The translations under genes and the position numbers were made by a program. Source: Nitrospiraceae bacterium (GTDB lineage: Bacteria; Nitrospirota; Nitrospiria; Nitrospirales; Nitrospiraceae). Taken from it: a DNA stretch of 64,000 nt. Of this stretch, positions 45,288 to 53,740 are shown in pieces. The notes beneath the pieces were generated by a model, which saw only the letters and a list, made by a program, of their open reading frames with translations, was not told where the DNA came from and did no database searches. How positions within the stretch are numbered: position 1 is the first letter of the stretch; every line of letters begins with the position of its first letter. Location: the NCBI GenBank assembly GCA_041743755.1, contig JBGTMB010000152.1, forward strand, positions 13,379 to 77,378, in the 5' to 3' direction.

Positions 45288-45547
45288 GCAGGATGCTGAA
45301 AAAGGAGATGGGGTAGCTGGGACGATCCCCTTGCTCGCGCAACGCGCGGCTTGAGAAAGCCCTCGTTGGACGCGCGCAGTTGGAATCATCCCAGCCACCC
45401 CTTACAAAAAGGATAGTTCGCTTCGGCCTTGTTTGGGAAAAGGCGCGTCACTGGGCAAAAAGTCTGTCTTGGCAGACTCAGGGCAGGTGGGTGAAATAAC
45501 CACCTGGGTTGGGCGGGTGAGAAGTCCGGCCTTTTTGAGCATCCTGC
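45288..45547 (+). repeat. Composite type-1 (T1) palindromic element: T1 termini enclosing a different ~220-bp core that contains a type-2 (T2) repeat
   Basis: The left end GCAGGATGCTGAAAAAGG (45288-) and right end CGGCCTTTTTGAGCATCCTGC (-45547) are inverted repeats matching the T1 copies at 46797, 54877 and 57632. The element fills the argC-argJ spacer. Confidence 0.75.
45310..45401. repeat. Type-2 (T2) palindromic repeat, copy a (nested in the composite T1 element)
   Basis: The termini GGGGTAGCTGGGACGATCC... and ...GGAATCATCCCAGCCACCCC are inverted repeats. The core CTTGCTCGCGCAACGCGCGG...CTCGTTGGACGCGCGCAG is shared with copies at 47036 and 47174. Confidence 0.7.
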
Positions 45548-45573: not shown

Positions 45574-46797
45574 ATGGCTAAAAAATTACCAACACCATCT
45601 CCACGCCGTGGAGTTACCGCACCGCAGGGATTTCGTGCAGCCGGCATCCATTGCGGGATCAAGAAGCCAGGCTTGCTCGACCTCGCGCTTGTTGTCTCAG
45701 AACAGAGCGGTCCCATCGCAGGGGTCTTCACGAAAAATCAGGTGGTCGCAGCGCCGGTCATTGTCGATCGCTTGCACTTACGCCAGGGAATCGGACGGAC
45801 CATTCTCGTCAACAGCGGCAACGCGAACGCCTGTACTGGCGCCAAGGGATTGGCCGCCGCAAAGAAGACTGCCACCGTACTTGCACGCCACATGGGAGTT
45901 CCCTCGCAACACGTATTCATCGGTTCTACAGGTGTGATCGGTCGTGCGTTACCGGTCGATCAAATCATCAAAGGCATCCCGAAACTGGTTGCTCAACTCA
46001 CCGACCATGGAGGCCCGGATGCTGCTCGGGCAATCATGACGACCGACCTGCGCCCGAAGTCCATTGCCCTCCAGGACACCATCGGTGGTCGTTTGATTAC
46101 CATCGGGGGAATGGCCAAGGGCTCTGGAATGATCCACCCCAACATGGCCACGATGCTGGCCTATTTCACCACGGACGCGTCAATCACGAAGAGCGCCCTC
46201 CAACGGGCTCTCAGTCTCGCGGCCGACGAGTCATTCAACTGCATTTCGGTCGATGGAGATACGAGCACGAACGACACGGTCCTGTGCTTGGCGAACGGTA
46301 TGGCTCGGAACCGCACCATCAAAGAAGGCACCCCCGCCTTTCAGCGATTCCTCCTACTCCTGACAGAAGCCTGCCAATCACTCGCGCTGGCAATTTGTCG
46401 CGATGGTGAAGGTGTCACGAAGGTGGTAAACATCGAGGTGGCCGGAGCAGCCACAGTGGCCCAGGCACGGCAGGTCGCCCACACCATCGCCACATCAAAT
46501 CTGGTAAAGACCGCCCTGTTCGGCGAAGATGCCAATTGGGGTCGTGTGATGGCGGCAATCGGACGAGCCGGGGTTCCGATTACTCCGTCAAAGCTGAATG
46601 TCTCGTTCGGCGGGGTTCCAATGGTAAAAAAAGGTATGGGACTCGGGCTCGCTGCTGAAGCCCGCATCGCAAAAGTCTTTCGCCAGAAAGAATTTACGAT
46701 CGCCGTAGGACTAGGACAAGGCCGCCACAAAGCGCACATCTGGACAACCGATCTGTCGTTCGACTATATCCGCATCAACGCAAGCTACCGATCTTAG
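45574..46797 (+). CDS. argJ: Bifunctional ornithine acetyltransferase / N-acetylglutamate synthase
   Basis: From the ORF 45433..46797. The likely start is at 45574 (MAKKLPTPSPRRGVTAPQGFRAAGIHCGIKK), because the upstream part of the ORF lies inside the repeat element. The autoprocessing site context is ATMLAYFTTDA. Confidence 0.93.
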   Translation: MAKKLPTPSPRRGVTAPQGFRAAGIHCGIKKPGLLDLALVVSEQSGPIAGVFTKNQVVAAPVIVDRLHLRQGIGRTILVNSGNANACTGAKGLAAAKKTATVLARHMGVPSQHVFIGSTGVIGRALPVDQIIKGIPKLVAQLTDHGGPDAARAIMTTDLRPKSIALQDTIGGRLITIGGMAKGSGMIHPNMATMLAYFTTDASITKSALQRALSLAADESFNCISVDGDTSTNDTVLCLANGMARNRTIKEGTPAFQRFLLLLTEACQSLALAICRDGEGVTKVVNIEVAGAATVAQARQVAHTIATSNLVKTALFGEDANWGRVMAAIGRAGVPITPSKLNVSFGGVPMVKKGMGLGLAAEARIAKVFRQKEFTIAVGLGQGRHKAHIWTTDLSFDYIRINASYRS

Positions 46798-46921
46798 CGG
46801 ATGCTGAAAAATCCCGTCAGCATCGTTCTCGCATCGCTCAGATCCTCAACGTACCCCAGAGGGTACGCCTCCGGTCTTCGCTCGCTGCGGCCTTGCTGAA
46901 CGGCCTTTTTGAGCATCCTGC
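46797..46921 (+). repeat. Type-1 (T1) ~124-bp MITE/REP-like palindromic element
   Basis: GCGGATGCTGAAAAATCCCGTCAGCATCGTTCTCGCATCGCTCAG...CGCTCGCTGCGGCCTTGCTGAACGGCCTTTTTGAGCATCCTGC. It has ~17-21 bp terminal inverted repeats and starts at the last base of the argJ stop codon. Confidence 0.8.
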
Positions 46922-47035
46922 GACTATTGAGGCGTCAGTACCAACTGTAGTATTTCAGGGCAAGGCGCGATCGCCTCTTTCCTGAACCAACCCACCGCCT
47001 AGCTGACTGGTGAACCTGAATCAAGAGAGACGAGA

Positions 47036-47126
47036 GGGGAAGTCTGGTCGTCCTCCTGCTCGCGGAACGCGCACGATAGGAATGTGCTCGTTCAACGCGC
47101 GCAATCGAGGATCAACCAGGCTACCC
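47036..47126. repeat. Type-2 (T2) palindromic repeat, copy b
   Basis: GGGGAAGTCTGGTCGTCCTC CTGCTCGCGGAACGCGCACG...GCTCGTTCAACGCGCGCAA..GAGGATCAACCAGGCTACCC. The termini are inverted repeats and the core is shared with 45310-45401. Confidence 0.65.
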
Positions 47127-47173
47127 TTGAAAATGAAATGTGAGATTAGGATAACGCCTACGATGAAGGGGAT

Positions 47174-47270
47174 GGAAGGGGCACCCATATTGGTCTTGTG
47201 CTTCCGGAACGCGCGCCCTAAGAAGGGCCTCGTTCGACGGCCTCACCTAGACCAACACAGGTGCCCTTCC
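47174..47270. repeat. Type-2 (T2)-related palindromic repeat, copy c
   Basis: The termini are GGAAGGGGCACCCATATTGGTCT and AGACCAACACAGGTGCCCTTCC. The core CTTCCGGAACGCGCGCCC...GGGCCTCGTTCGACGG is related to copies a and b. Confidence 0.6.
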
Positions 47271-47499
47271 GTATGGGAGGAGGTAGGCTTACAAACACCC
47301 TCGCCCTCTTCTGTGCAGATGATTTATTGCGAGGAAAAGCGTATTCTTTGACACCATTAATTTCCCAGCCCCAGTCTATCCAAGATTAGACTGACCGGAA
47401 AAAACAGAGAAGACTCGGTCTCCAGATAAATAAATATATGACCGCTAGACCTCATCTCACTTCTCTGTTTGAAGCTTTTTAGCTGAAAGGAATACACCC

Positions 47500-48093
47500 A
47501 TGGCCGAAGAAGACCATGCCATTAGCGCAGAAGTTCTGCAGCAAGTTATTGCGGCACTCTCGAAGGCGGAACCCACTAGCCGCTCAAAAATTCTTCAGAC
47601 CGCTGCGACTTTCTTCGAAATCAGACCAGTTGTCGTCTCCAGTGCTTCTTCTCTTTCGCAACAATCCAAACCTTCCGGAGAATTCTCAGAAGACCGCTCA
47701 ATATCTCCCAAAGTTTTCATCCATGACAAGGCTCCACAAACAGACATTGAGAGAGTAACCTGTTTAGCCTACTATCTTACTCACTATAGAGCGACCCCCC
47801 ATTTCAAGACCCTAGACATAAGCAAGCTAAATACAGACGCAGCACAGGTGAAGTTTTCGAATGCTGCTTGGTCTGTAGAAAATGCTGCCAAGAAAGGACT
47901 CCTCGTCCCCGCCCCTCAGGGCCATAAACAAATTAGCTCTTTTGGAGAGAAATTTGTTCTTGCCCTACCAAATCGAGATGCTGCAAAGGGGGTACTAGCC
48001 AACATTCGCAAGAAGCGGCCAACGAAGAAAGCGGACAGTTCAAATGGCCCTGAAATTTCCACCGAAGAATCCATTGAGGATTCTCTCATCTAA
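47500..48093 (+). CDS. Hypothetical protein (orphan; first gene of AT-rich three-gene cassette)
   Basis: 197 aa, ATG preceded by GAAAGGA. It has an N-terminal helical segment, a Ser-rich linker (VVSSASSLSQQSKPS) and a C-terminal part with a possible winged-helix pattern (KKGLLVPAPQGHKQISSFGEKFVLAL). A basic then acidic tail follows. I do not recognise a family. Spot G+C counts are lower than in the flanks. Confidence 0.7.
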   Translation: MAEEDHAISAEVLQQVIAALSKAEPTSRSKILQTAATFFEIRPVVVSSASSLSQQSKPSGEFSEDRSISPKVFIHDKAPQTDIERVTCLAYYLTHYRATPHFKTLDISKLNTDAAQVKFSNAAWSVENAAKKGLLVPAPQGHKQISSFGEKFVLALPNRDAAKGVLANIRKKRPTKKADSSNGPEISTEESIEDSLI

Positions 48094-48102
48094 AGAAATC
48101 AT

Positions 48103-49098
48103 ATGACTCGACACGCAAAACGCATCGTTATCTACAATCACAAGGGTGGGGTTGGGAAAACCACACTGACTGTAAATATTGCTGCTGCATTTGTCTCTCT
48201 TGGAAAGAGAGTACTTTTGGTCGACTCAGATCCCCAATGCAACCTGACGGCTTATTCGATCGAGAGCAATGTTGTCGATGACCTCTTGGACACATCAGAT
48301 GACGAGAAAAAAGGCCGAACAGTATGGTCGGCGTTAAAGCCTATATCTGAGGGAACAGGGAACGTTAAAACTATCCGGCCCTACGAGTTGTCATCTAACT
48401 TATTTCTACTTCCTGGCGATATTAGGCTATCGGAATTCGAAATGTCTCTTACATCGCTTTGGAGCGAATGTGTCCAACGACGAATTAGAGGTTTTCGTGG
48501 AGTTACAGCACTTAGCTCACTGGTCAGCGATATCGCAAGAAGCCAAGATATAGACTACATATTTTATGATGCAGGGCCCAATATTGGGCCACTGAATAAG
48601 GTTATTCTTCTCGATTGCGACGAATTGATTGTGCCTGCAGCGTGCGATCTATTCTCAGTGAGAGCATTGAAAACGCTTGGCCACACTATGTCCGAATGGA
48701 TAAAGGAATGGGAAATTATTGAAACTCTTGCCCCTGACGATCTCTACCTATTCAATGGCAAACCAAGATTCCTAGGTTATATACCTCAGCGCTTCAGAGT
48801 TTATCGGGGCGAACCATCTGCTGCCTACACATCCTATTTGTCAAAATTGGAGAAGAATGTCGAAAGTGAAATTATCGCAGTACTGCGAAAAATTGATACT
48901 ACTCTGGCCCCAAGGAGCGTATCTGAAACGATGCTAGGGCAGATCCAGGACTTTGGAGCGCTTGCCAATGCGGCTCAAAATGAGGGCGTTCCCTTATGGA
49001 AGGTGCGTGGAGCTGGAAGCAAGGAACTGAAAGAATCTGCGAGGCAAACATTTCTCGCCCTATCAAAACAAATCATTAAGCGGGCGCAGTCCGTGTAA
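48103..49098 (+). CDS. ParA/MinD-like P-loop ATPase (deviant Walker A)
   Basis: 331 aa. It has IVIYNHKGGVGKTTLTVNIAAAF (the KGGxGKT deviant Walker A with signature Lys), LLVDSDPQCNLT (A') and IDYIFYDAGPN (Walker B-like). It starts 9 nt after the preceding stop. Confidence 0.85.
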   Translation: MTRHAKRIVIYNHKGGVGKTTLTVNIAAAFVSLGKRVLLVDSDPQCNLTAYSIESNVVDDLLDTSDDEKKGRTVWSALKPISEGTGNVKTIRPYELSSNLFLLPGDIRLSEFEMSLTSLWSECVQRRIRGFRGVTALSSLVSDIARSQDIDYIFYDAGPNIGPLNKVILLDCDELIVPAACDLFSVRALKTLGHTMSEWIKEWEIIETLAPDDLYLFNGKPRFLGYIPQRFRVYRGEPSAAYTSYLSKLEKNVESEIIAVLRKIDTTLAPRSVSETMLGQIQDFGALANAAQNEGVPLWKVRGAGSKELKESARQTFLALSKQIIKRAQSV

Positions 49099-49102
49099 CC
49101 TA

Positions 49103-49897
49103 ATGAACCGCAAGATTTCCAAAATGGAGGCTGACAGAATCGACGGACTCGTTGCCTTTTATCGAGAGAACCTAGAGCAGTTTAAACGCTTCATGGGATC
49201 CGTGCAGTCTCTTTTCAGTAATGTTGAAGCCTTGACACCCTATGTTCATTCAACAAAATGGCGAATCAAGGATCCTGAGCACTTAAAAGACAAATTGAAA
49301 AGACGGGCCATCCAATGCAAAGAGAACAACGAGAAATTTGAGGTTACAAAAGAGAACCTTTTTGAGAAAGTGACCGATCTCGTCGGTTATCGAATTCTCC
49401 ATCTTCATACAACACAAATTAACAAAATCAACAAAGTCATTTTGGATCTACTCGTGAAAGATGATTATGTCTTAATCGAAGGCCCTATCGCTCGAACATG
49501 GGACAGCGAATCAGAGACTTACTTCAAGAGCATTGGCATCGAGACAAGGGATACCGGAAGAATGTACACGAGTGTTCATTATCTTTTTAAAGCTAATAAA
49601 CGGGCGCTACCCACTTGCGAGCTGCAGGTTAGAACACTTGCAGAGGAGGTGTGGGGAGAAGTAGATCACATGATAAATTACCCTCACCCGTCACACATTA
49701 CTGCGTGCAGAGAGCAAATAAAAGTCCTCGCGCGGGTAACATCAAGCTGCAGCAGATTAGTTGACTCCATTTTTCAATCCTATAATGAGAGTTGCATTCA
49801 GCTACCCATTCAAGAAAAAATAAGGCGCACAAACCCAAACAAGTCTGCCAAGGACAACCGAGCAGTGAAACGTAGTAGGACAAAGCGAAAAAGTTAG
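49103..49897 (+). CDS. Stand-alone RelA/SpoT-homolog synthetase-domain protein (small alarmone synthetase-like nucleotidyltransferase)
   Basis: 264 aa with the RSH synthetase motifs WRIKDPEHLKDKLKRR, VTDLVGYRILHLH, MYTSVHYLF and ELQVRTLAEEVWGEVDH. There is no HD hydrolase domain. The C-terminal tail KSAKDNRAVKRSRTKRKS is Lys/Arg-rich. It starts 4 nt after the ParA-like stop. Confidence 0.85.
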   Translation: MNRKISKMEADRIDGLVAFYRENLEQFKRFMGSVQSLFSNVEALTPYVHSTKWRIKDPEHLKDKLKRRAIQCKENNEKFEVTKENLFEKVTDLVGYRILHLHTTQINKINKVILDLLVKDDYVLIEGPIARTWDSESETYFKSIGIETRDTGRMYTSVHYLFKANKRALPTCELQVRTLAEEVWGEVDHMINYPHPSHITACREQIKVLARVTSSCSRLVDSIFQSYNESCIQLPIQEKIRRTNPNKSAKDNRAVKRSRTKRKS

Positions 49898-50351
49898 AGG
49901 TCTCAGAAGCCCTTCAAGTTCTCCGCTGAGCGGATGCAATCGAAGGGGTGGGCAGAAATGAAGACAAAACAATGGTGTCAGCAGTCTTTCCAATTGCTCT
50001 ATTTGAAGACTTCTCCGACAACCCTCCTTCGCGCAACGGGACTAAACGGCTAATCCATCCACAGCACTAACCCGTCACGCATCCCACGCCTTACCCCTAA
50101 CGCCTCACTTTCACTGACATCAGTTTGACTTCTGACTATGAGAAGGCGCAACATGGCGTCCATTATTCATAAAATACAGAGGTGTATGGTGCCCTCTTGC
50201 TAGTCTCGCCCAATCCAGCTATACAGAATCGATCAAGAATCGAATCGCACCCTCTTGGCAGACTTCGCCATGAGGACGTTGTTGTTTGTGCAACAGTAAC
50301 ACCCATCGACATGATGTCCTGGGTCTTAACCTCATCGAAATGGAGACTGAG

Positions 50352-50576
50352 ATGAAACGACTGGCAACCCTATCGGCCGGACTGATCCTGGGATCGCCCT
50401 CCCTCGCATTGGCGGCGGAACATAGTGCGGGGTACCGGGGTATCGGGCAACTCTACTTCTTCTTCATGGGCGCGATTTTAATCTATGGCGTCTATGACAG
50501 CTTCGGCAAGAAGGCGATGTATGTGATGGCGCCGATCATTGTGATCGGGCTCTATCTGATGTTGCCCGCGGAGTAG
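50352..50576 (+). CDS. Small membrane protein, unknown function
   Basis: From the ORF 50286..50576. The likely start is the ATG at 50352, preceded by GGAG with a 6-nt spacer. MKRLATLSAGLILGSPSLALAAE looks like a signal peptide and is followed by two hydrophobic segments. An intrinsic terminator follows the gene. Confidence 0.45.
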   Translation: MKRLATLSAGLILGSPSLALAAEHSAGYRGIGQLYFFFMGAILIYGVYDSFGKKAMYVMAPIIVIGLYLMLPAE

Positions 50577-50599
50577 ATACCGAGATCAGGATAGGATCC

Positions 50600-50635
50600 A
50601 AAAGACTGGCTCGGCTTAGTCGAGCCAGTCTTTTT
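50600..50635. terminator. Bidirectional intrinsic terminator shared by convergent genes
   Basis: Perfect 14-bp arms AAAAGACTGGCTCG (50600-50613) and CGAGCCAGTCTTTT (50621-50634) flank a 7-nt loop containing the top6A stop codon. A T-run lies on the plus side and an A-run on the other side. Confidence 0.65.
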
Positions 50636-51722
50636 CTTTGAGTTTCCGTGGAAGATATTTTTTCGTGAGGTACTGGAAGTCTTTGTTGGCAAGGGCGTCT
50701 AGTTCGTACTTGAGTCCGCTCGCGAGCATCCGCTTGATCTCAACCTGCCAGGCCGGCTTCTGGAACCACTGATAGTTGAGGAGTTCCTTTGCGCGGGCGA
50801 TGTCCTTCTCGTTCAATTTGATCCCGACGTTACGCGGAAGTTCGTATCGTTCAGGGTCAGCGCTGGAAAGACCGATGAACTTGGCTTTGGGAATCGCCAT
50901 CCGCTGGCTCTCAAAGGCCAGATTAATTGAGCCTTGCTTCACAACGGAATAGATATAGTACCCCCAGGGATCGTTATCGACCAGGACATAGACTGGAAGT
51001 CTATATTCCTCGTGTAATCGCCTGGCCAAGCGGCGCACCCCACGAGGCGGTTGCCCATTGCCCGTCAATAGCACACAGTTATATCGGCGCCAGAATTTAT
51101 CTTCCGAGAGGCGATTCCACTGCGTGCCTTTCTCCACCAACAGTACAAAGTCAGCCGTACAGCGGCGGATCTCCACATATTCGGGCTCGACAATCGACGG
51201 AACCGAGTACCCGCCTTTTCCCAGCTTGGCGCAATCCACACGATCGCCATCGTCACCCAGCACGAGCGGGCCGACGACACTTCCTCCATTTTCTGCGCGT
51301 ACATGTAATTCCTCACGAAGCGCCACGAGCGACACTTCCAGATCTTCGATAATCGGGTCCGATTCGTCCTGGGTGTCGAAGGTATTCTCGTGCGAGTCCT
51401 GAATGGTGTGTTTCGTCCGGTAATAAATCTCTCTGAGCGACGTCGTCAACTCCGCGCGCTGCAATTCGGAGAGGGCATCCGCGACCAACATCGTCTGCAT
51501 GAACTTCTTGGCCATGCCGACGTTGAAAAATGAACGGGCCTGTTTCTTGCTCCCCATTTCGAGCAAACCCTTGCGCGCATTAAAGGCCACGTTCGAGAGC
51601 GCGCGAATCGGGATGGCCATCGTCGGATCTTTTTCACGCTGCGCGGACGCGATCACCATATCGGCCAGCCCGACTAATTTCTTTTCAACAACCCCGTTCT
51701 TTGTGATTTTTGTTTTTGCCAT
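50616..51722 (-). CDS. top6A: DNA topoisomerase VI subunit A (Spo11-like)
   Basis: 368 aa. The catalytic-Tyr context is LREIYYRTKH. The Toprim motifs are LLVEKGT (Glu) and LVDNDPWGYYIY (DxD). Confidence 0.9.
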   Translation of the reverse strand: MAKTKITKNGVVEKKLVGLADMVIASAQREKDPTMAIPIRALSNVAFNARKGLLEMGSKKQARSFFNVGMAKKFMQTMLVADALSELQRAELTTSLREIYYRTKHTIQDSHENTFDTQDESDPIIEDLEVSLVALREELHVRAENGGSVVGPLVLGDDGDRVDCAKLGKGGYSVPSIVEPEYVEIRRCTADFVLLVEKGTQWNRLSEDKFWRRYNCVLLTGNGQPPRGVRRLARRLHEEYRLPVYVLVDNDPWGYYIYSVVKQGSINLAFESQRMAIPKAKFIGLSSADPERYELPRNVGIKLNEKDIARAKELLNYQWFQKPAWQVEIKRMLASGLKYELDALANKDFQYLTKKYLPRKLKEKDWLD

Positions 51723-51730
51723 GCGTCGTC

Positions 51731-53740
51731 CTACTTTTTCTTCCTTGCCAGGGGGACCTTGCGACCGGTACGAACTGCACCTGTCTGTTGCTGTGCCAGC
51801 GCACCATTTTTACGAGTCGATCCGACGGTTGCGACCATGCTTGGCCTTTTCTTCTCAGACTGTGTCTTTGCAGTGTGTCGTGGGTTAGGTGTAGGGGAAG
51901 CCGGCTGCTCCTCGATTGCTATGTCATCGGAAACAGGAGCCGCCAGTGGAGCCTCTCCTTCGATACCTTCCGCTGTGACAATAATGGAATGCGGTAGGCC
52001 CTCCGGCCCGGCGCCGGTCTTGCCGAGCGTTTCATCCGTCTTCATGCCACCGGTTCGTGAAGAAGCAATCTTCTGCAGTTGCGCTTTCAATTTTTCGACG
52101 GACAGCTTCCCACCCTTTAACCTGTTACAGGCTTCGGCGACTTCTTCGATATAGAGTTCGAAAATATTGCGCCGCCGAAATTCGCTCGCTGCTCGCTCGC
52201 GACGTCGCAGAAAAAGTCCAAGCCGCCGCCCACACTCGCGAAGCGCGAGGGTAATCTCTTTATGGATCTCGTCGTACTCCGCGATCGCCTCTTTCGATTC
52301 GCTTGTAAAGGGCACCCAGACGGAAGCAATGTGCACGAAGATAGCCATCGGACCTGCGGGAAGAGCCCCGCGTGATTGGCTCATTCCATAATTGCGCCAG
52401 GTTGTCGCCAGCACCGCCTTGAAAATAGCGCAAGCAGACTGCTGGTAGAGCAGCGGCACCCGGTTGGCATAGCGAATCACGCGCGCGAGTTCTGAATCTC
52501 CTTCTTCCTGCTCCCCTTCTGCCAACGGCATCGCCGGCCTCTCAGGCTTAGCCTCGCTATCCGGAGCTTTGCCAAAGGACAGTCCTGCTTCAATAATGAA
52601 GGGGTTGCCGCGATAGACGGAGGGAGGCCGGCTCACCGCCGTATAGAATTCTCCTTTGATCTGTTTATATAGACCTGAGAGGATGGCCTTTTCGCCGATC
52701 GGGGAGAGGCAATTGGTCGGCGGCGCCATGATCTTTGTCGCTTGAATCGTGCGATAGAGCGTTTCGGCTGTCGCACCGCGAATGTCGCGAGGCTTCGCGC
52801 TGGGCGAAACCTTCGCCATCTTACACATCTCATCCGCGAGCGGAGGCGTCACCCGGCAGAAATCGCTCGACAGAAATCCCGAAAGGGTCTGGCTCTTGGC
52901 CTCATGGAGCATCTTGAGGAACATCCCGAATTCGATACCGTAGGGATGAGGTTTGATTTCCTTCGGCGATGGCGGCAATTCATGATAGGCGCGAGGATAT
53001 TCCTTCGTCTCCCCATCCGGCGATCGATAGATGAGCTTCACATGAGCGTTGGCAATTGACGTCTGCTCGAGATACTCATCCACCGACGCGCGACCCTTCT
53101 GGTAACGGCCTTCGACTTCAATCGCCACCTGTGTGCCACGCGGCTGGTCCCATTCGATCTGTTTGTTCTCATGGACCAGGGGTTCGTTCTTCTTGGTATC
53201 GATCTGCACCTCGAAATAATGGGCCGACGCCTTGGGGCCGATACGCGAAATAATCTTCACCGGTTTGCCGGTCGTCAGTTGACCATACATCCCTGCCGCC
53301 GAAATGCCTATCCCCTGCTGACCGCGACTCATGCGCAAGCGATGGAACTTGGAGCCGTATAACAGTTTTGCAAAGATTTTCGGAATCTGCTGGCGGACGA
53401 TCCCGGGGCCATTATCTGTGACCGTCACTCGGAAGCGCGTGGCCTGACTTGCAGAGAGCTTTGCTGCCGATCCAATAGCCACAACTTCCAGCTGAACTGT
53501 CACCTCAGGAAGAATCCCAGCTTCCTCACAGGCATCCAGGGCGTTATCGACCGCTTCTTTGACGCAAGTCAGCAACGCTTTGCGTGGGTTGTCAAAACCG
53601 AGTAAATGCCGATTCTTGGTGAAGAATTCGGAGACGGAAATCTCGCGCTGCCGCGCGCCCATTTCTACCGCCGTCACTGCCGTAGCTGCACGGGGGGTTG
53701 TATTCTTGGACACGGATGCAAGTGACTTATGCGTGCTCAT
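51731..53740 (-). CDS. top6B: DNA topoisomerase VI subunit B (GHKL ATPase)
   Basis: 669 aa. ISVSEFFTKNRHLLGFDNPRKALLTCVKEAVDNALDACEE is a Bergerat-fold N box. DNGPGI is the G1 box, followed by GQQGIG. It lies 8 nt upstream of top6A and has a ~100-aa low-complexity basic C-terminal tail. Confidence 0.9.
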   Translation of the reverse strand: MSTHKSLASVSKNTTPRAATAVTAVEMGARQREISVSEFFTKNRHLLGFDNPRKALLTCVKEAVDNALDACEEAGILPEVTVQLEVVAIGSAAKLSASQATRFRVTVTDNGPGIVRQQIPKIFAKLLYGSKFHRLRMSRGQQGIGISAAGMYGQLTTGKPVKIISRIGPKASAHYFEVQIDTKKNEPLVHENKQIEWDQPRGTQVAIEVEGRYQKGRASVDEYLEQTSIANAHVKLIYRSPDGETKEYPRAYHELPPSPKEIKPHPYGIEFGMFLKMLHEAKSQTLSGFLSSDFCRVTPPLADEMCKMAKVSPSAKPRDIRGATAETLYRTIQATKIMAPPTNCLSPIGEKAILSGLYKQIKGEFYTAVSRPPSVYRGNPFIIEAGLSFGKAPDSEAKPERPAMPLAEGEQEEGDSELARVIRYANRVPLLYQQSACAIFKAVLATTWRNYGMSQSRGALPAGPMAIFVHIASVWVPFTSESKEAIAEYDEIHKEITLALRECGRRLGLFLRRRERAASEFRRRNIFELYIEEVAEACNRLKGGKLSVEKLKAQLQKIASSRTGGMKTDETLGKTGAGPEGLPHSIIVTAEGIEGEAPLAAPVSDDIAIEEQPASPTPNPRHTAKTQSEKKRPSMVATVGSTRKNGALAQQQTGAVRTGRKVPLARKKK

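Follow-up and report, generated by a model that had tools for sequence, protein, structure and literature searches.

What does a small RelA/SpoT homologue (RSH) do when it retains the synthetase domain and carries no hydrolase or regulatory domain? This question is raised by an open reading frame (ORF) in a 64,000-nucleotide stretch of the genome of a Nitrospiraceae bacterium (assembly GCA_041743755.1, contig JBGTMB010000152.1, positions 13,379 to 77,378 of the forward strand). This whole stretch is referred to as the window, and positions are numbered from its first letter. An earlier note made from the sequence alone, the original prediction, had placed an RSH gene with an ATG start and a length of 264 amino acids (aa) at 49103-49897, and an ORF is found that matches this description exactly. 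The prediction centered on the protein itself and on a Lys/Arg-rich C-terminal tail that would bind a nucleic acid such as tRNA or inhibit the enzyme. Here, we describe the gene as the third member of a mobile cassette, in which it follows the genes for a winged-helix-like protein (gene 1) and a ParA-like ATPase. We weigh the explanations for this cassette and, on balance, favor that of a conflict system with the synthetase as its effector.

A three-gene cassette shared by more than ten phyla

A genome scan with one genome per species gave 139 confirmed places among 185,579 species representatives, and 80 loci were analyzed. According to tblastn, a ParA-like gene lies directly upstream of the RSH gene in 79 of these 80 loci, and gene 1 lies upstream of the ParA-like gene in 75. 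Four of the five loci that miss gene 1 stop at contig ends; in the fifth (L065), an insertion sequence (IS) transposase stands in place of the partner genes. The loci are distributed over more than ten phyla, among which are Nitrospirota, Acidobacteriota, Myxococcota, Bacteroidota, Proteobacteria, Chloroflexota, Verrucomicrobiota, Planctomycetota, Actinomycetota, Gemmatimonadota and Omnitrophota. The same trio is found on contigs of close and distant relatives, with unrelated surroundings.

The three genes are tightly packed on the same strand. In the window, 9 bp separate gene 1 from the ParA-like gene and the ATG of the RSH gene is located 4 bp past the ParA stop codon, and in 23 of 61 relatives the latter two genes share 4 bp. 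Clustering of 1,249 flanking ORFs revealed no fourth conserved gene, such as one for an SAH antitoxin, and no other neighbor recurs in more than five of the 80 loci. The pairwise-identity matrices of the three proteins correlate with each other (Mantel r 0.39-0.55), and none of 500 permutations reached the observed values. All three genes are under purifying selection, with ratios of nonsynonymous to synonymous substitution rates (dN/dS) of 0.08-0.13: 0.08 for the ParA-like gene, 0.09 for gene 1 and 0.13 for the RSH gene, the last measured against a Nitrospira copy of 82% identity. The RSH gene had initially been considered by itself, and a stand-alone gene is at odds with a ParA-like gene upstream in all loci but one. 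Based on this conservation, we consider it very likely that the ParA-like ATPase, the winged-helix-like protein and the small alarmone synthetase (SAS) constitute an obligate, co-inherited cassette.

A synthetase-only RSH protein

The RSH protein matches Pfam family RelA_SpoT (PF04607) over residues 54-195 with E = 4.5e-13, and its 49.9 bits exceed the gathering score of 27. No HD, TGS, ACT or other domain exceeds the Pfam threshold, in line with the expectation that a protein of 264 aa has no hydrolase or TGS/ACT regulatory domain, and the AlphaFold2 model comprises a single domain plus a disordered tail. The four synthetase motifs that had been read from the translation are indeed present, at residues 53-68, 92-102, 154-162 and 173-189, and their key residues are invariant. 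In an alignment of 36 family members (48-96% identity), the invariant positions include R54, K56, K64, D92, R97, Y155, S157, H159, E173, Q175, R177, T178, E181, E182, W184, G185, E186 and H189. The entire run from Y155 to Y160 is invariant, G95 is nearly so, and the core from residue 1 to approximately 228 is strongly conserved. HMMER aligns these motifs with the R-x-K, D-x2-G-x-R, Y-x-S-x-H and E-x-Q-x-R-T...H elements of RelP/RelQ. The specific counterparts are R-V-K...K and Y-R-S-L-H in RelP, and D-I-A-G-I-R and E-I-Q-I-R-T...W...E-H in RelP/RelQ. The catalytic roles of these SYNTH motif elements are established from the structures of RelSeq, RelQ and RelP.

The AlphaFold2 model has the SYNTH (nucleotidyltransferase-type) fold, with a mean predicted local distance difference test (pLDDT) score of 88.3. 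The best PDB matches found by Foldseek are RelP and RelQ (E about 1e-9, target-normalized template modeling (TM) score 0.55-0.74), followed by an exported Streptomyces SAS (about 1e-6), CapRel (3e-6) and long Rel enzymes (about 1e-4). Likewise, a profile of the RSH family retrieves RelP/RelQ from the PDB at E = 1e-7 to 1e-5 and no CapRel chain at E < 1. The isoelectric point (pI) is 8.5 for the core of the protein and 8.1 for the core of the family. Such mildly basic values fit a nucleotide or a tRNA acceptor alike.

At the level of sequence, the ORF is confirmed as a real synthetase-only RSH whose active site is intact, and chance is ruled out as an explanation. Motifs and fold together predict an enzymatically competent small synthetase, for which an effector role like that of the toxic small alarmone synthetases (toxSAS) is plausible. 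Membership of RelQ/RelP was considered and rejected, since the protein scores 31 bits against the 320-bit cut-off of the NCBIfam RelQ/YjbM equivalog GTPPhKinYjbM and shares 14-20% identity with the RelP and RelQ structures. The position outside the housekeeping clades that the original prediction relied on is thereby upheld with regard to RelQ and RelP. The 2011 RSH subfamily tables do not cover the family found here, although the Atkinson database may already have a subfamily name for it.

Relatives of the RSH protein also occur in other arrangements. An exhaustive profile search for fusions (230 representatives at E ≤ 1e-30) identified two members of the RSH clade with long TPR arrays, P0337 (813 aa) and P0350 (619 aa), which would correspond to an effector-plus-sensor layout. 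Other fusions, among P0309 (474 aa) and P0283 (401 aa), involve a SAM methyltransferase domain and a CBM_3 domain. Furthermore, plasmids of Firmicutes encode RelA/SpoT proteins of 343-349 aa that are about 30% identical to the RSH protein, namely Bacillus anthracis pXO1 (L088, 4914-5963) and Geobacillus pLDW-1 (L089, 4911-5942). These proteins are extended at the C-terminus by about 110 aa without annotation, are encoded by solo genes adjoining a tyrosine recombinase/integrase, and may represent a fused-regulator SAS family.

The Lys/Arg-rich C-terminal tail

The final 25 aa of the RSH protein, in which about ten Lys/Arg residues had been reported, contain 11 of them. The tail as a whole (residues 233-264) counts 12 Lys/Arg and two Asp/Glu in 32 aa. 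Among 181 family members, the part beyond the last helix measures 0 to 133 aa (median 14), is at most 4 aa long in 28% and cannot be aligned between relatives. Of the tails of at least 5 aa, 81% have a net charge of at least +3, and the median Lys plus Arg fraction is 0.35. The basic composition thus recurs, in a tail that is frequent yet dispensable. In the AlphaFold2 model, the tail is predicted to be disordered (block-mean pLDDT 49-62), forms no domain and docks nowhere. Against the 82%-identical Nitrospira copy, its dN/dS is 0.48, compared to 0.087 for the core. An electrostatic pairing with the acidic end of the gene 1 protein was considered and rejected, as the two tails do not covary (rho -0.16, p 0.26).

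Neither of the roles that had been suggested for the tail is borne out. Because it is often absent, cannot be aligned and evolves under relaxed constraint, it cannot be an essential element for binding a nucleic-acid substrate. Similarly, a disordered and non-conserved tail is not a folded antitoxin domain of the CapRel type, and the packing on the active site that such a domain would display is missing from the model. A CapRel-type fused antitoxin or autoinhibitory tail was rejected on the same grounds, namely disorder, variability, frequent absence and relaxed selection.

These results bear directly on the explanation that the protein is a stand-alone toxSAS, with a Lys/Arg tail that binds tRNA, as in FaRel2, PhRel2 and CapRel, or that is autoinhibitory as in CapRel. 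We regard this explanation as quite unlikely. The 11 basic residues in 25 aa, the recurrence of positive charge in the longer tails, the presence of CapRel among the fold matches and the core pI of 8.5 do agree with it. However, a ParA-like gene accompanies the RSH gene almost without exception, the tail has none of the constancy expected from such a role, CapRel is absent from the PDB profile matches, and RelP/RelQ lie three orders of magnitude ahead of it in Foldseek. In addition, two-gene relatives that consist of a ParA-like gene and an RSH gene (see below) do without a basic tail: the protein in L106 has none and that in L103 has a Pro/Ala-rich one. On the question of tRNA, the evidence touches the proposed role of the tail only; for the core, a tRNA acceptor is the less probable option. 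The tail itself is at most an electrostatic tether, a dispensable disordered appendage that might hold the enzyme close to nucleic acid or to ParA.

The partner proteins

Gene 1 matches no Pfam, NCBIfam, PHROG or PADLOC family, and none of its 711 homologs carries a Pfam domain. The protein starts with a helical hairpin (residues 2-38), followed by a variable, disordered linker (about 46-65) and a highly conserved winged-helix-like domain (about 66-170), and ends in a basic patch and an acidic tail. Its AlphaFold2 model has a pLDDT of 72, and the Foldseek matches are weak (E ≥ 0.065), yet uniformly of the winged-helix type (MarR, RovA, DtxR, MCM8-WH and Rok). The domain has a pI of 10.2. Across 36 sequences, R170 is invariant and R173 nearly invariant. 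In 94% of 49 loci, the 26 residues past the LPDR motif have a net charge of at least +5. ParA-type ATPases dimerize on ATP, bind DNA non-specifically and are stimulated by short basic peptides of their partners. We infer that the basic patch of gene 1 could act as a ParA-stimulating or a DNA-contacting peptide.

The second protein matches Pfam families AAA_31 (E = 6e-30), CbiA (6.7e-17) and ParA. Among 70 cassette ParA proteins, residues 11-20 are at least 97% conserved and the Walker A' (DPQ) and Walker B (D-x-GP) motifs are kept as well, which speaks for an active ATPase. In the PDB, the nearest sequence is that of 3PG5 ('Uncharacterized protein'), with E = 1.5e-35 over residues 7-206, and Soj, ParA and MinD match at about 1e-13 to 1e-9 in the P-loop region only. 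Sequence comparison thus sets the cassette ATPase apart as a separate, 3PG5-related ParA clade.

Other partners of the ParA clade

To which genes this clade is linked elsewhere was assessed by tblastn with the ParA-like protein against 72,556 plasmids, in which 199 records encode full-length relatives (27-34% identity). On a megaplasmid of Salmonella Infantis (L095, 2902-5916) and on a plasmid of Vibrio ponticus (L099, 3998-5853), the next gene, in an overlapping frame, encodes a SIR2_2 protein. These SIR2_2 proteins match the ThsA, Dsr and LmuA-type SIR2 models of PADLOC at 1e-21 to 1e-12, and in Salmonella a DNA methyltransferase gene is located directly upstream of the ParA-SIR2 pair. On a Burkholderia glumae plasmid (L093, 3998-5637), the ParA relative is followed by a HEPN_RiboL-PSP protein, and in B. 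gladioli and B. pseudomallei by unannotated proteins. Some members of the clade are solo. No PADLOC system model matched the ParA-SIR2 and ParA-HEPN pairs of L095, L099 and L093, which may be uncatalogued defense systems in their own right. For the Salmonella pair, megablast gave no match on E. coli chromosomes. The exchange of RSH, SIR2 and HEPN effectors next to the same ATPase clade supports a role of ParA in immunity or conflict.

One solo member, of 355 aa, is encoded on an E. coli IncX1 plasmid (L108, 2998-4062) alongside a separate ParA/ParG pair. This solo 355-aa type is widespread, with approximately 150 enterobacterial plasmid records, both of IncX type and others.

Canonical partition pairs thus reside next to members of the clade, as ParA/ParG on this E. 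coli plasmid and as ParA/ParB in V. ponticus; in V. campbellii, a short ParA gene adjoining a small unannotated ORF lies beside the clade member. Since the same plasmid regions have separate partition pairs, the clade is an extra paralog and not the partition ATPase. This makes it highly improbable that the cassette itself is a DNA-partition system, composed of ParA and a small centromere-binding protein with the RSH gene as passenger cargo. Formally, type Ib partition loci have a comparable layout, in which a ParA ATPase is joined by a small DNA-binding partner bearing a basic peptide, and the cassette shares with type I ParABS systems both the deviant Walker A motif (KGGVGKT) of the ATPase and the conserved basic peptide of the small partner. 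In contrast to these systems, it is chromosomal, occurs in varied contexts without replicon genes and includes an obligatory third, enzymatic gene. Moreover, no iterated centromere-like repeats are found in window positions 46500-50700, gene 1 has no match in the 72,556 plasmids, and the order of adaptor before ATPase is atypical. Plasmids with members of the ParA clade carry in addition a separate canonical pair, ParA/ParB or ParF/ParG, or else a short ParA gene beside a small unannotated ORF.

Mobility of the cassette

The GC content of the cassette is 0.453, versus 0.566 for argJ and 0.53-0.56 for the downstream genes (putative topoisomerase VI). A 2680-bp block (47227-49906) is 95.2% identical to loci L001-L003 in BLASTN, and the flanks are unrelated, a pattern that is indicative of recent transfer. 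In Nitrospira sp. RSF3 (L009), the flanks (argC-argJ on one side, the putative topoisomerase VI genes on the other) are syntenic at 81-86% identity. The cassette between them (L009 5229-10091 against window 47036-50121) is divergent, with about 66% DNA and 60% RSH identity, and has the opposite orientation. The same slot was therefore filled independently or its content was replaced, which suggests an integration hotspot or cassette replacement. Across phyla, RSH identities stay on a plateau of 45-56%, and a Myxococcaceae copy (56%) is closer to the protein of the window than another Nitrospira copy (50%).

Phages and plasmids contribute few copies. IMG/VR holds only six RSH relatives, one of which is part of a full trio. 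For the other five, the RSH protein has 34-45% identity, a ParA-like gene (27% identity) is located directly upstream and gene 1 is missing. In a P2-like prophage (L106, 6904-8693; PHROG E = 1e-29 to 1e-102), such a ParA and RSH pair separates the tail-completion/terminator genes from the baseplate V/W/J-type genes; the pair is encoded on the opposite strand, and an endolysin gene is close by. Another pair follows an endolysin gene (L103, 6825-8879). The sole close RSH match in the 72,556 plasmids is a degraded copy on a Caballeronia megaplasmid, with a damaged ParA gene, no gene 1 and an intact RSH gene.

This pattern of transfer has to be set against the explanation of a housekeeping or regulatory synthetase, in which ParA and the adaptor would tie local (p)ppGpp synthesis to the status of the chromosome, the nucleoid or the cell cycle. 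The nearest relatives in sequence and fold are the non-toxic RelP and RelQ, the copy in the window and several others are located among housekeeping genes, and the strong purifying selection on all three genes would be expected. A housekeeping function is nevertheless improbable in view of the patchy distribution of the cassette over the species representatives, the cross-phylum identity plateau, near-identical cassettes in unrelated contexts, the same slot with a replaced, inverted cassette, and the low GC content. Copies in accessory-gene slots of prophages and in an integrative element also argue against it, as does the ParA clade that is common to SIR2 and HEPN effectors.

Decayed copies and the toxin-antitoxin alternative

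Several loci have lost part of the cassette. In L057 (3689-8720), gene 1 is intact, the ParA gene is split by two different transposase genes, and the RSH gene has two in-frame stops, one of which falls on the codon of the catalytic G-loop Tyr. In L065, the IS element is located upstream of an intact RSH ORF.

These losses are relevant to the explanation that the cassette is a tripartite toxin-antitoxin or addiction module. In such a module, the RSH protein would be a constitutively toxic toxSAS with ParA and/or gene 1 as antitoxin, and the winged helix of gene 1 would also repress the operon, as in omega-epsilon-zeta or the three-gene FaRel operon. Its role would be to stabilize the mobile DNA that carries it and not to sense phages, although this explanation overlaps heavily with that of a conflict system. 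According to Jimmy et al. 2020 (PMC7229694), a conserved, tightly coupled arrangement as seen here predicts SAS toxicity. The mobility and low GC content of the cassette, and the PIN/RHH toxin-antitoxin pair that adjoins the L001 cassette, are in keeping with an addiction module, as is the L057 copy, whose ParA gene is destroyed and whose RSH gene has nonsense codons as well. Conversely, L065 and Caballeronia have kept an intact RSH ORF although its partners are lost or damaged, and the cassette is hardly ever found on plasmids, on which addiction modules thrive. A 331-aa ATPase with intact Walker motifs and under strong purifying selection would be an atypical stoichiometric antitoxin, and the association of the ParA clade with SIR2 and HEPN follows a sensor-effector pattern of defense. 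We therefore consider a toxin-antitoxin module rather unlikely, less so than a stand-alone toxSAS or a housekeeping enzyme.

Defense-related neighbors

In L091 (4383-16721), the cassette lies within an element bounded by two large serine recombinases, with genes for Vsr, an MvaI/BcnI-type restriction enzyme and a cytosine methylase directly downstream. Another copy is found near patatin and SMODS (CBASS-like) genes, and in L001 the cassette is adjoined by the PIN/RHH pair mentioned above. Among 278 proteins encoded within two genes of the cassette, PADLOC models (threshold E ≤ 1e-10) identified components of type I, II and IIG restriction-modification, MADS, Hma and DISARM, as well as BrxH, AbiEii, PDC-S01, PDC-S13 and PDC-S36. 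Approximately 10% of the flanking proteins have a PADLOC hit, compared to approximately 4% of 85 far-end controls, percentages that are a rough estimate because the counts are reported per family and not per protein.

Comparison with known systems

ATPases combined with a swappable effector are known from abortive-infection systems such as SIR2-HerA, PARIS AriAB, Lamassu LmuB with LmuA, and Septu. The cassette shares their logic of one NTPase clade with alternative toxic effectors, encoded by adjacent and often overlapping genes. Its NTPase differs, being of the ParA/MinD type with a deviant Walker A motif and not HerA, ABC/SMC or AAA15/21.

RelQ and RelP (SAS1/SAS2 of Firmicutes) have a single SYNTH domain like the RSH protein, and all catalytic motifs as well as the C-terminal helix align. 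They are encoded by stand-alone housekeeping genes, whereas the cassette RSH gene forms an operon with ParA-like and winged-helix partners and is horizontally mobile. With the toxSAS enzymes FaRel, FaRel2, PhRel, PhRel2 and CapRel, the cassette has in common a tight multi-gene arrangement, a location on mobile DNA and an association with phages or prophages. Alarmone synthesis or tRNA pyrophosphorylation is a plausible effector activity for the cassette RSH protein too. The toxSAS partners reported in Jimmy et al. 2020 (PMC7229694) are small antitoxins, SAH or Panacea-type domains. The partners in the cassette are a 331-aa ATPase and a winged-helix protein instead, and a folded C-terminal antitoxin domain is lacking.

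A further comparison is offered by PANGU type I, which combines the YejK-like nucleoid protein Pag1A with the GRel toxSAS Pag1B (bioRxiv 10.64898/2026.04.06.716658). In this system, the chromosome-bound YejK-like protein is freed upon phage-induced genome degradation and activates GRel, which makes pppGpp and gives no tRNA labeling (10.64898/2026.04.06.716658). PANGU thereby sets a precedent for a partner that activates a toxSAS rather than neutralizing it. Like the cassette, it is a mobile, defense-linked module in which a SAS effector is paired with a protein associated with DNA. Its composition is different, with two genes, a sensor of the YejK type and a SAS with an acidic, DNA-mimicking C-terminal domain, in contrast to the short, basic (12 Lys/Arg versus two Asp/Glu) and disordered tail of the cassette RSH protein. 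The cassette partners match no family of nucleoid-associated proteins in Pfam or NCBIfam and have no evident homology to the PANGU partners.

By membership, the RSH protein is an RSH-superfamily SAS that is neither RelQ/RelP, nor CapRel-like, nor of the PANGU type. By analogy of mechanism, the cassette would most resemble the ATPase-plus-effector abortive-infection systems and the toxSAS modules. It looks like an undescribed phage-defense or toxin-type module. No published description was found of a ParA-linked SAS or of the ParA clade with SIR2 or HEPN proteins, although a description may have been missed, since 'ParA' makes a poor keyword and newer catalogues could have such systems under a different name.

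Proposed function of the cassette

On balance, we favor the explanation that the cassette is a conflict system, either for anti-phage abortive infection or of a related toxin type. In its favor are the intact enzyme, the obligate linkage of the three genes, their mobility, the exchange of effectors within the ParA clade, the pairs in prophages, the defense-related neighbors, the TPR fusions of the RSH clade and the precedent of PANGU. The RSH protein would be the growth-arresting effector, and the ParA-like ATPase and the winged-helix adaptor would form the regulatory or sensing part. At rest, ATPase and adaptor would keep the synthetase inactive or unlicensed. A trigger tied to the state of the DNA or nucleoid, or to a phage factor, would then alter the state of the ATPase, after which the RSH protein would move pyrophosphate from ATP onto an acceptor. 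This acceptor is most probably a purine nucleotide, with (p)ppGpp or (pp)pApp as the product, and less probably the 3' end of tRNA; the nucleotide is favored because of the RelP/RelQ-like core, its conserved C-terminal helix and the family core pI. The outcome would be growth shutdown.

Several points weigh against this explanation or leave room within it. No cassette protein matches a system in PADLOC-DB v2.0: the RSH protein and gene 1 have no meaningful hits, and the sole match of the cassette ParA is to the P-loop segment of PDC-M28B (E = 3.7e-7, residues 3-43). The defense-island signal is moderate, and many copies, including the one in the window, are located among housekeeping genes. 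The support is computational throughout. DNA binding by ParA or gene 1 is suggested by fold class and charge, and the acceptor cannot be read from the sequence, as a core pI of 8.1-8.5 fits both nucleotide and tRNA. The partners could activate the RSH protein, as in PANGU, or neutralize it like an antitoxin, and the decayed copies point in both directions: L057 fits an antitoxin role, whereas L065 and the Caballeronia copy fit an activator role.

A broader hypothesis, which we put forward tentatively as a possible one, extends the conflict-system explanation to the whole 3PG5-like ParA clade. The clade would be the sensor or licensing part of modular immune systems with swappable effectors, namely RSH (together with the winged-helix adaptor), SIR2 and HEPN. 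Its ATP- and DNA-dependent cycle would report nucleoid integrity or foreign DNA and would free or activate the effector, thereby aborting the infection.

Layout of the cassette and its surroundings

The features of the cassette are listed in Table 1. The leader is partly conserved in L001 and L007. At E ≤ 1, it has no Rfam match; the only hit in this search was a terminator hairpin downstream of the cassette that matches a miRNA model spuriously. A convincing sigma-70 match in the right orientation was not found in the leader, and upstream conservation is modest. No convincing terminal repeats or att sites bound the 2.7-kb unit.

Table 1 Features of the RSH cassette in the window (aa, amino acid residues of the respective protein)
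Feature	Position	Strand	Remarks
Whole mobile cassette (273-bp leader and three genes)	47227..49906	+	2680-bp BLASTN block, low GC
Leader, putative promoter region travelling with the cassette	47227..47499	+	Within the 95% identity block
Gene 1, 197 aa, unnamed family, winged-helix-like	47500..48093	+	
Gene 1, conserved basic patch RKKRPTKK, aa 170-177	48007..48030	+	
Gene 2, ParA-like ATPase, 331 aa	48103..49098	+	
Gene 2, deviant Walker A KGGVGKTT, aa 13-20	48139..48162	+	
Gene 3, small RSH synthetase, 264 aa, putative effector	49103..49897	+	Pfam, motifs, fold
RSH motif WRIKDPEHLKDKLKRR, aa 53-68	49259..49306	+	By homology binds ATP phosphates
RSH motif DLVGYRILHLH, aa 92-102	49376..49408	+	By homology Asp binds Mg2+
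RSH G-loop MYTSVHYLF, aa 154-162, acceptor-stacking Y155	49562..49588	+	
RSH motif ELQVRTLAEEVWGEVDH, aa 173-189, catalytic glutamate	49619..49669	+	
RSH disordered Lys/Arg-rich C-terminal tail, aa 233-264	49799..49894	+	

Short, host-specific dispersed repeats of about 40-130 bp flank the cassette on both sides and resemble miniature inverted-repeat transposable elements or repetitive extragenic palindromes (MITE/REP-type elements). In the window, they are located at 46795-46928, 45325-45380, 47054-47124 and 47197-47239, with a partial inverted copy at 49911-49958, and several copies are present in related Nitrospira contigs (L001, L008, L009 and L038). Downstream of the cassette, an ORF of 96 aa with two hydrophobic stretches (50286-50576, + strand) is followed by a strong terminator-like hairpin with a 16-bp stem (50600-50634). 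This hairpin is shared with the convergent gene for the putative topoisomerase VI subunit A and is the source of the spurious, weak Rfam match to mir-14. The minus-strand ORFs at 50616-51722 (368 aa) and 51731-53740 (669 aa) resemble, by eye only, topoisomerase VI subunits A (Spo11-like) and B (GHKL ATPase), respectively. They are syntenic with Nitrospira sp. RSF3, and the genome appears to be that of a Nitrospira.

Implications

A small RSH protein with a basic tail would by itself be a more modest result, and the main interest lies in the operon that surrounds it. The cassette is common in soil and freshwater phyla that are hard to culture (Acidobacteriota, Nitrospirota, Bacteroidota, Planctomycetota and Verrucomicrobiota) and whose defense repertoires are poorly charted. 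With a size of 2.7 kb, it is compact enough to be cloned and tested directly. If the proposed function is correct, a ParA-type ATPase with a DNA-binding adaptor would constitute a third mode of SAS control, beside antitoxins and the PANGU activator. ParA/MinD machinery, which is known for positioning DNA and protein complexes, would then enter the realm of immunity and conflict systems.

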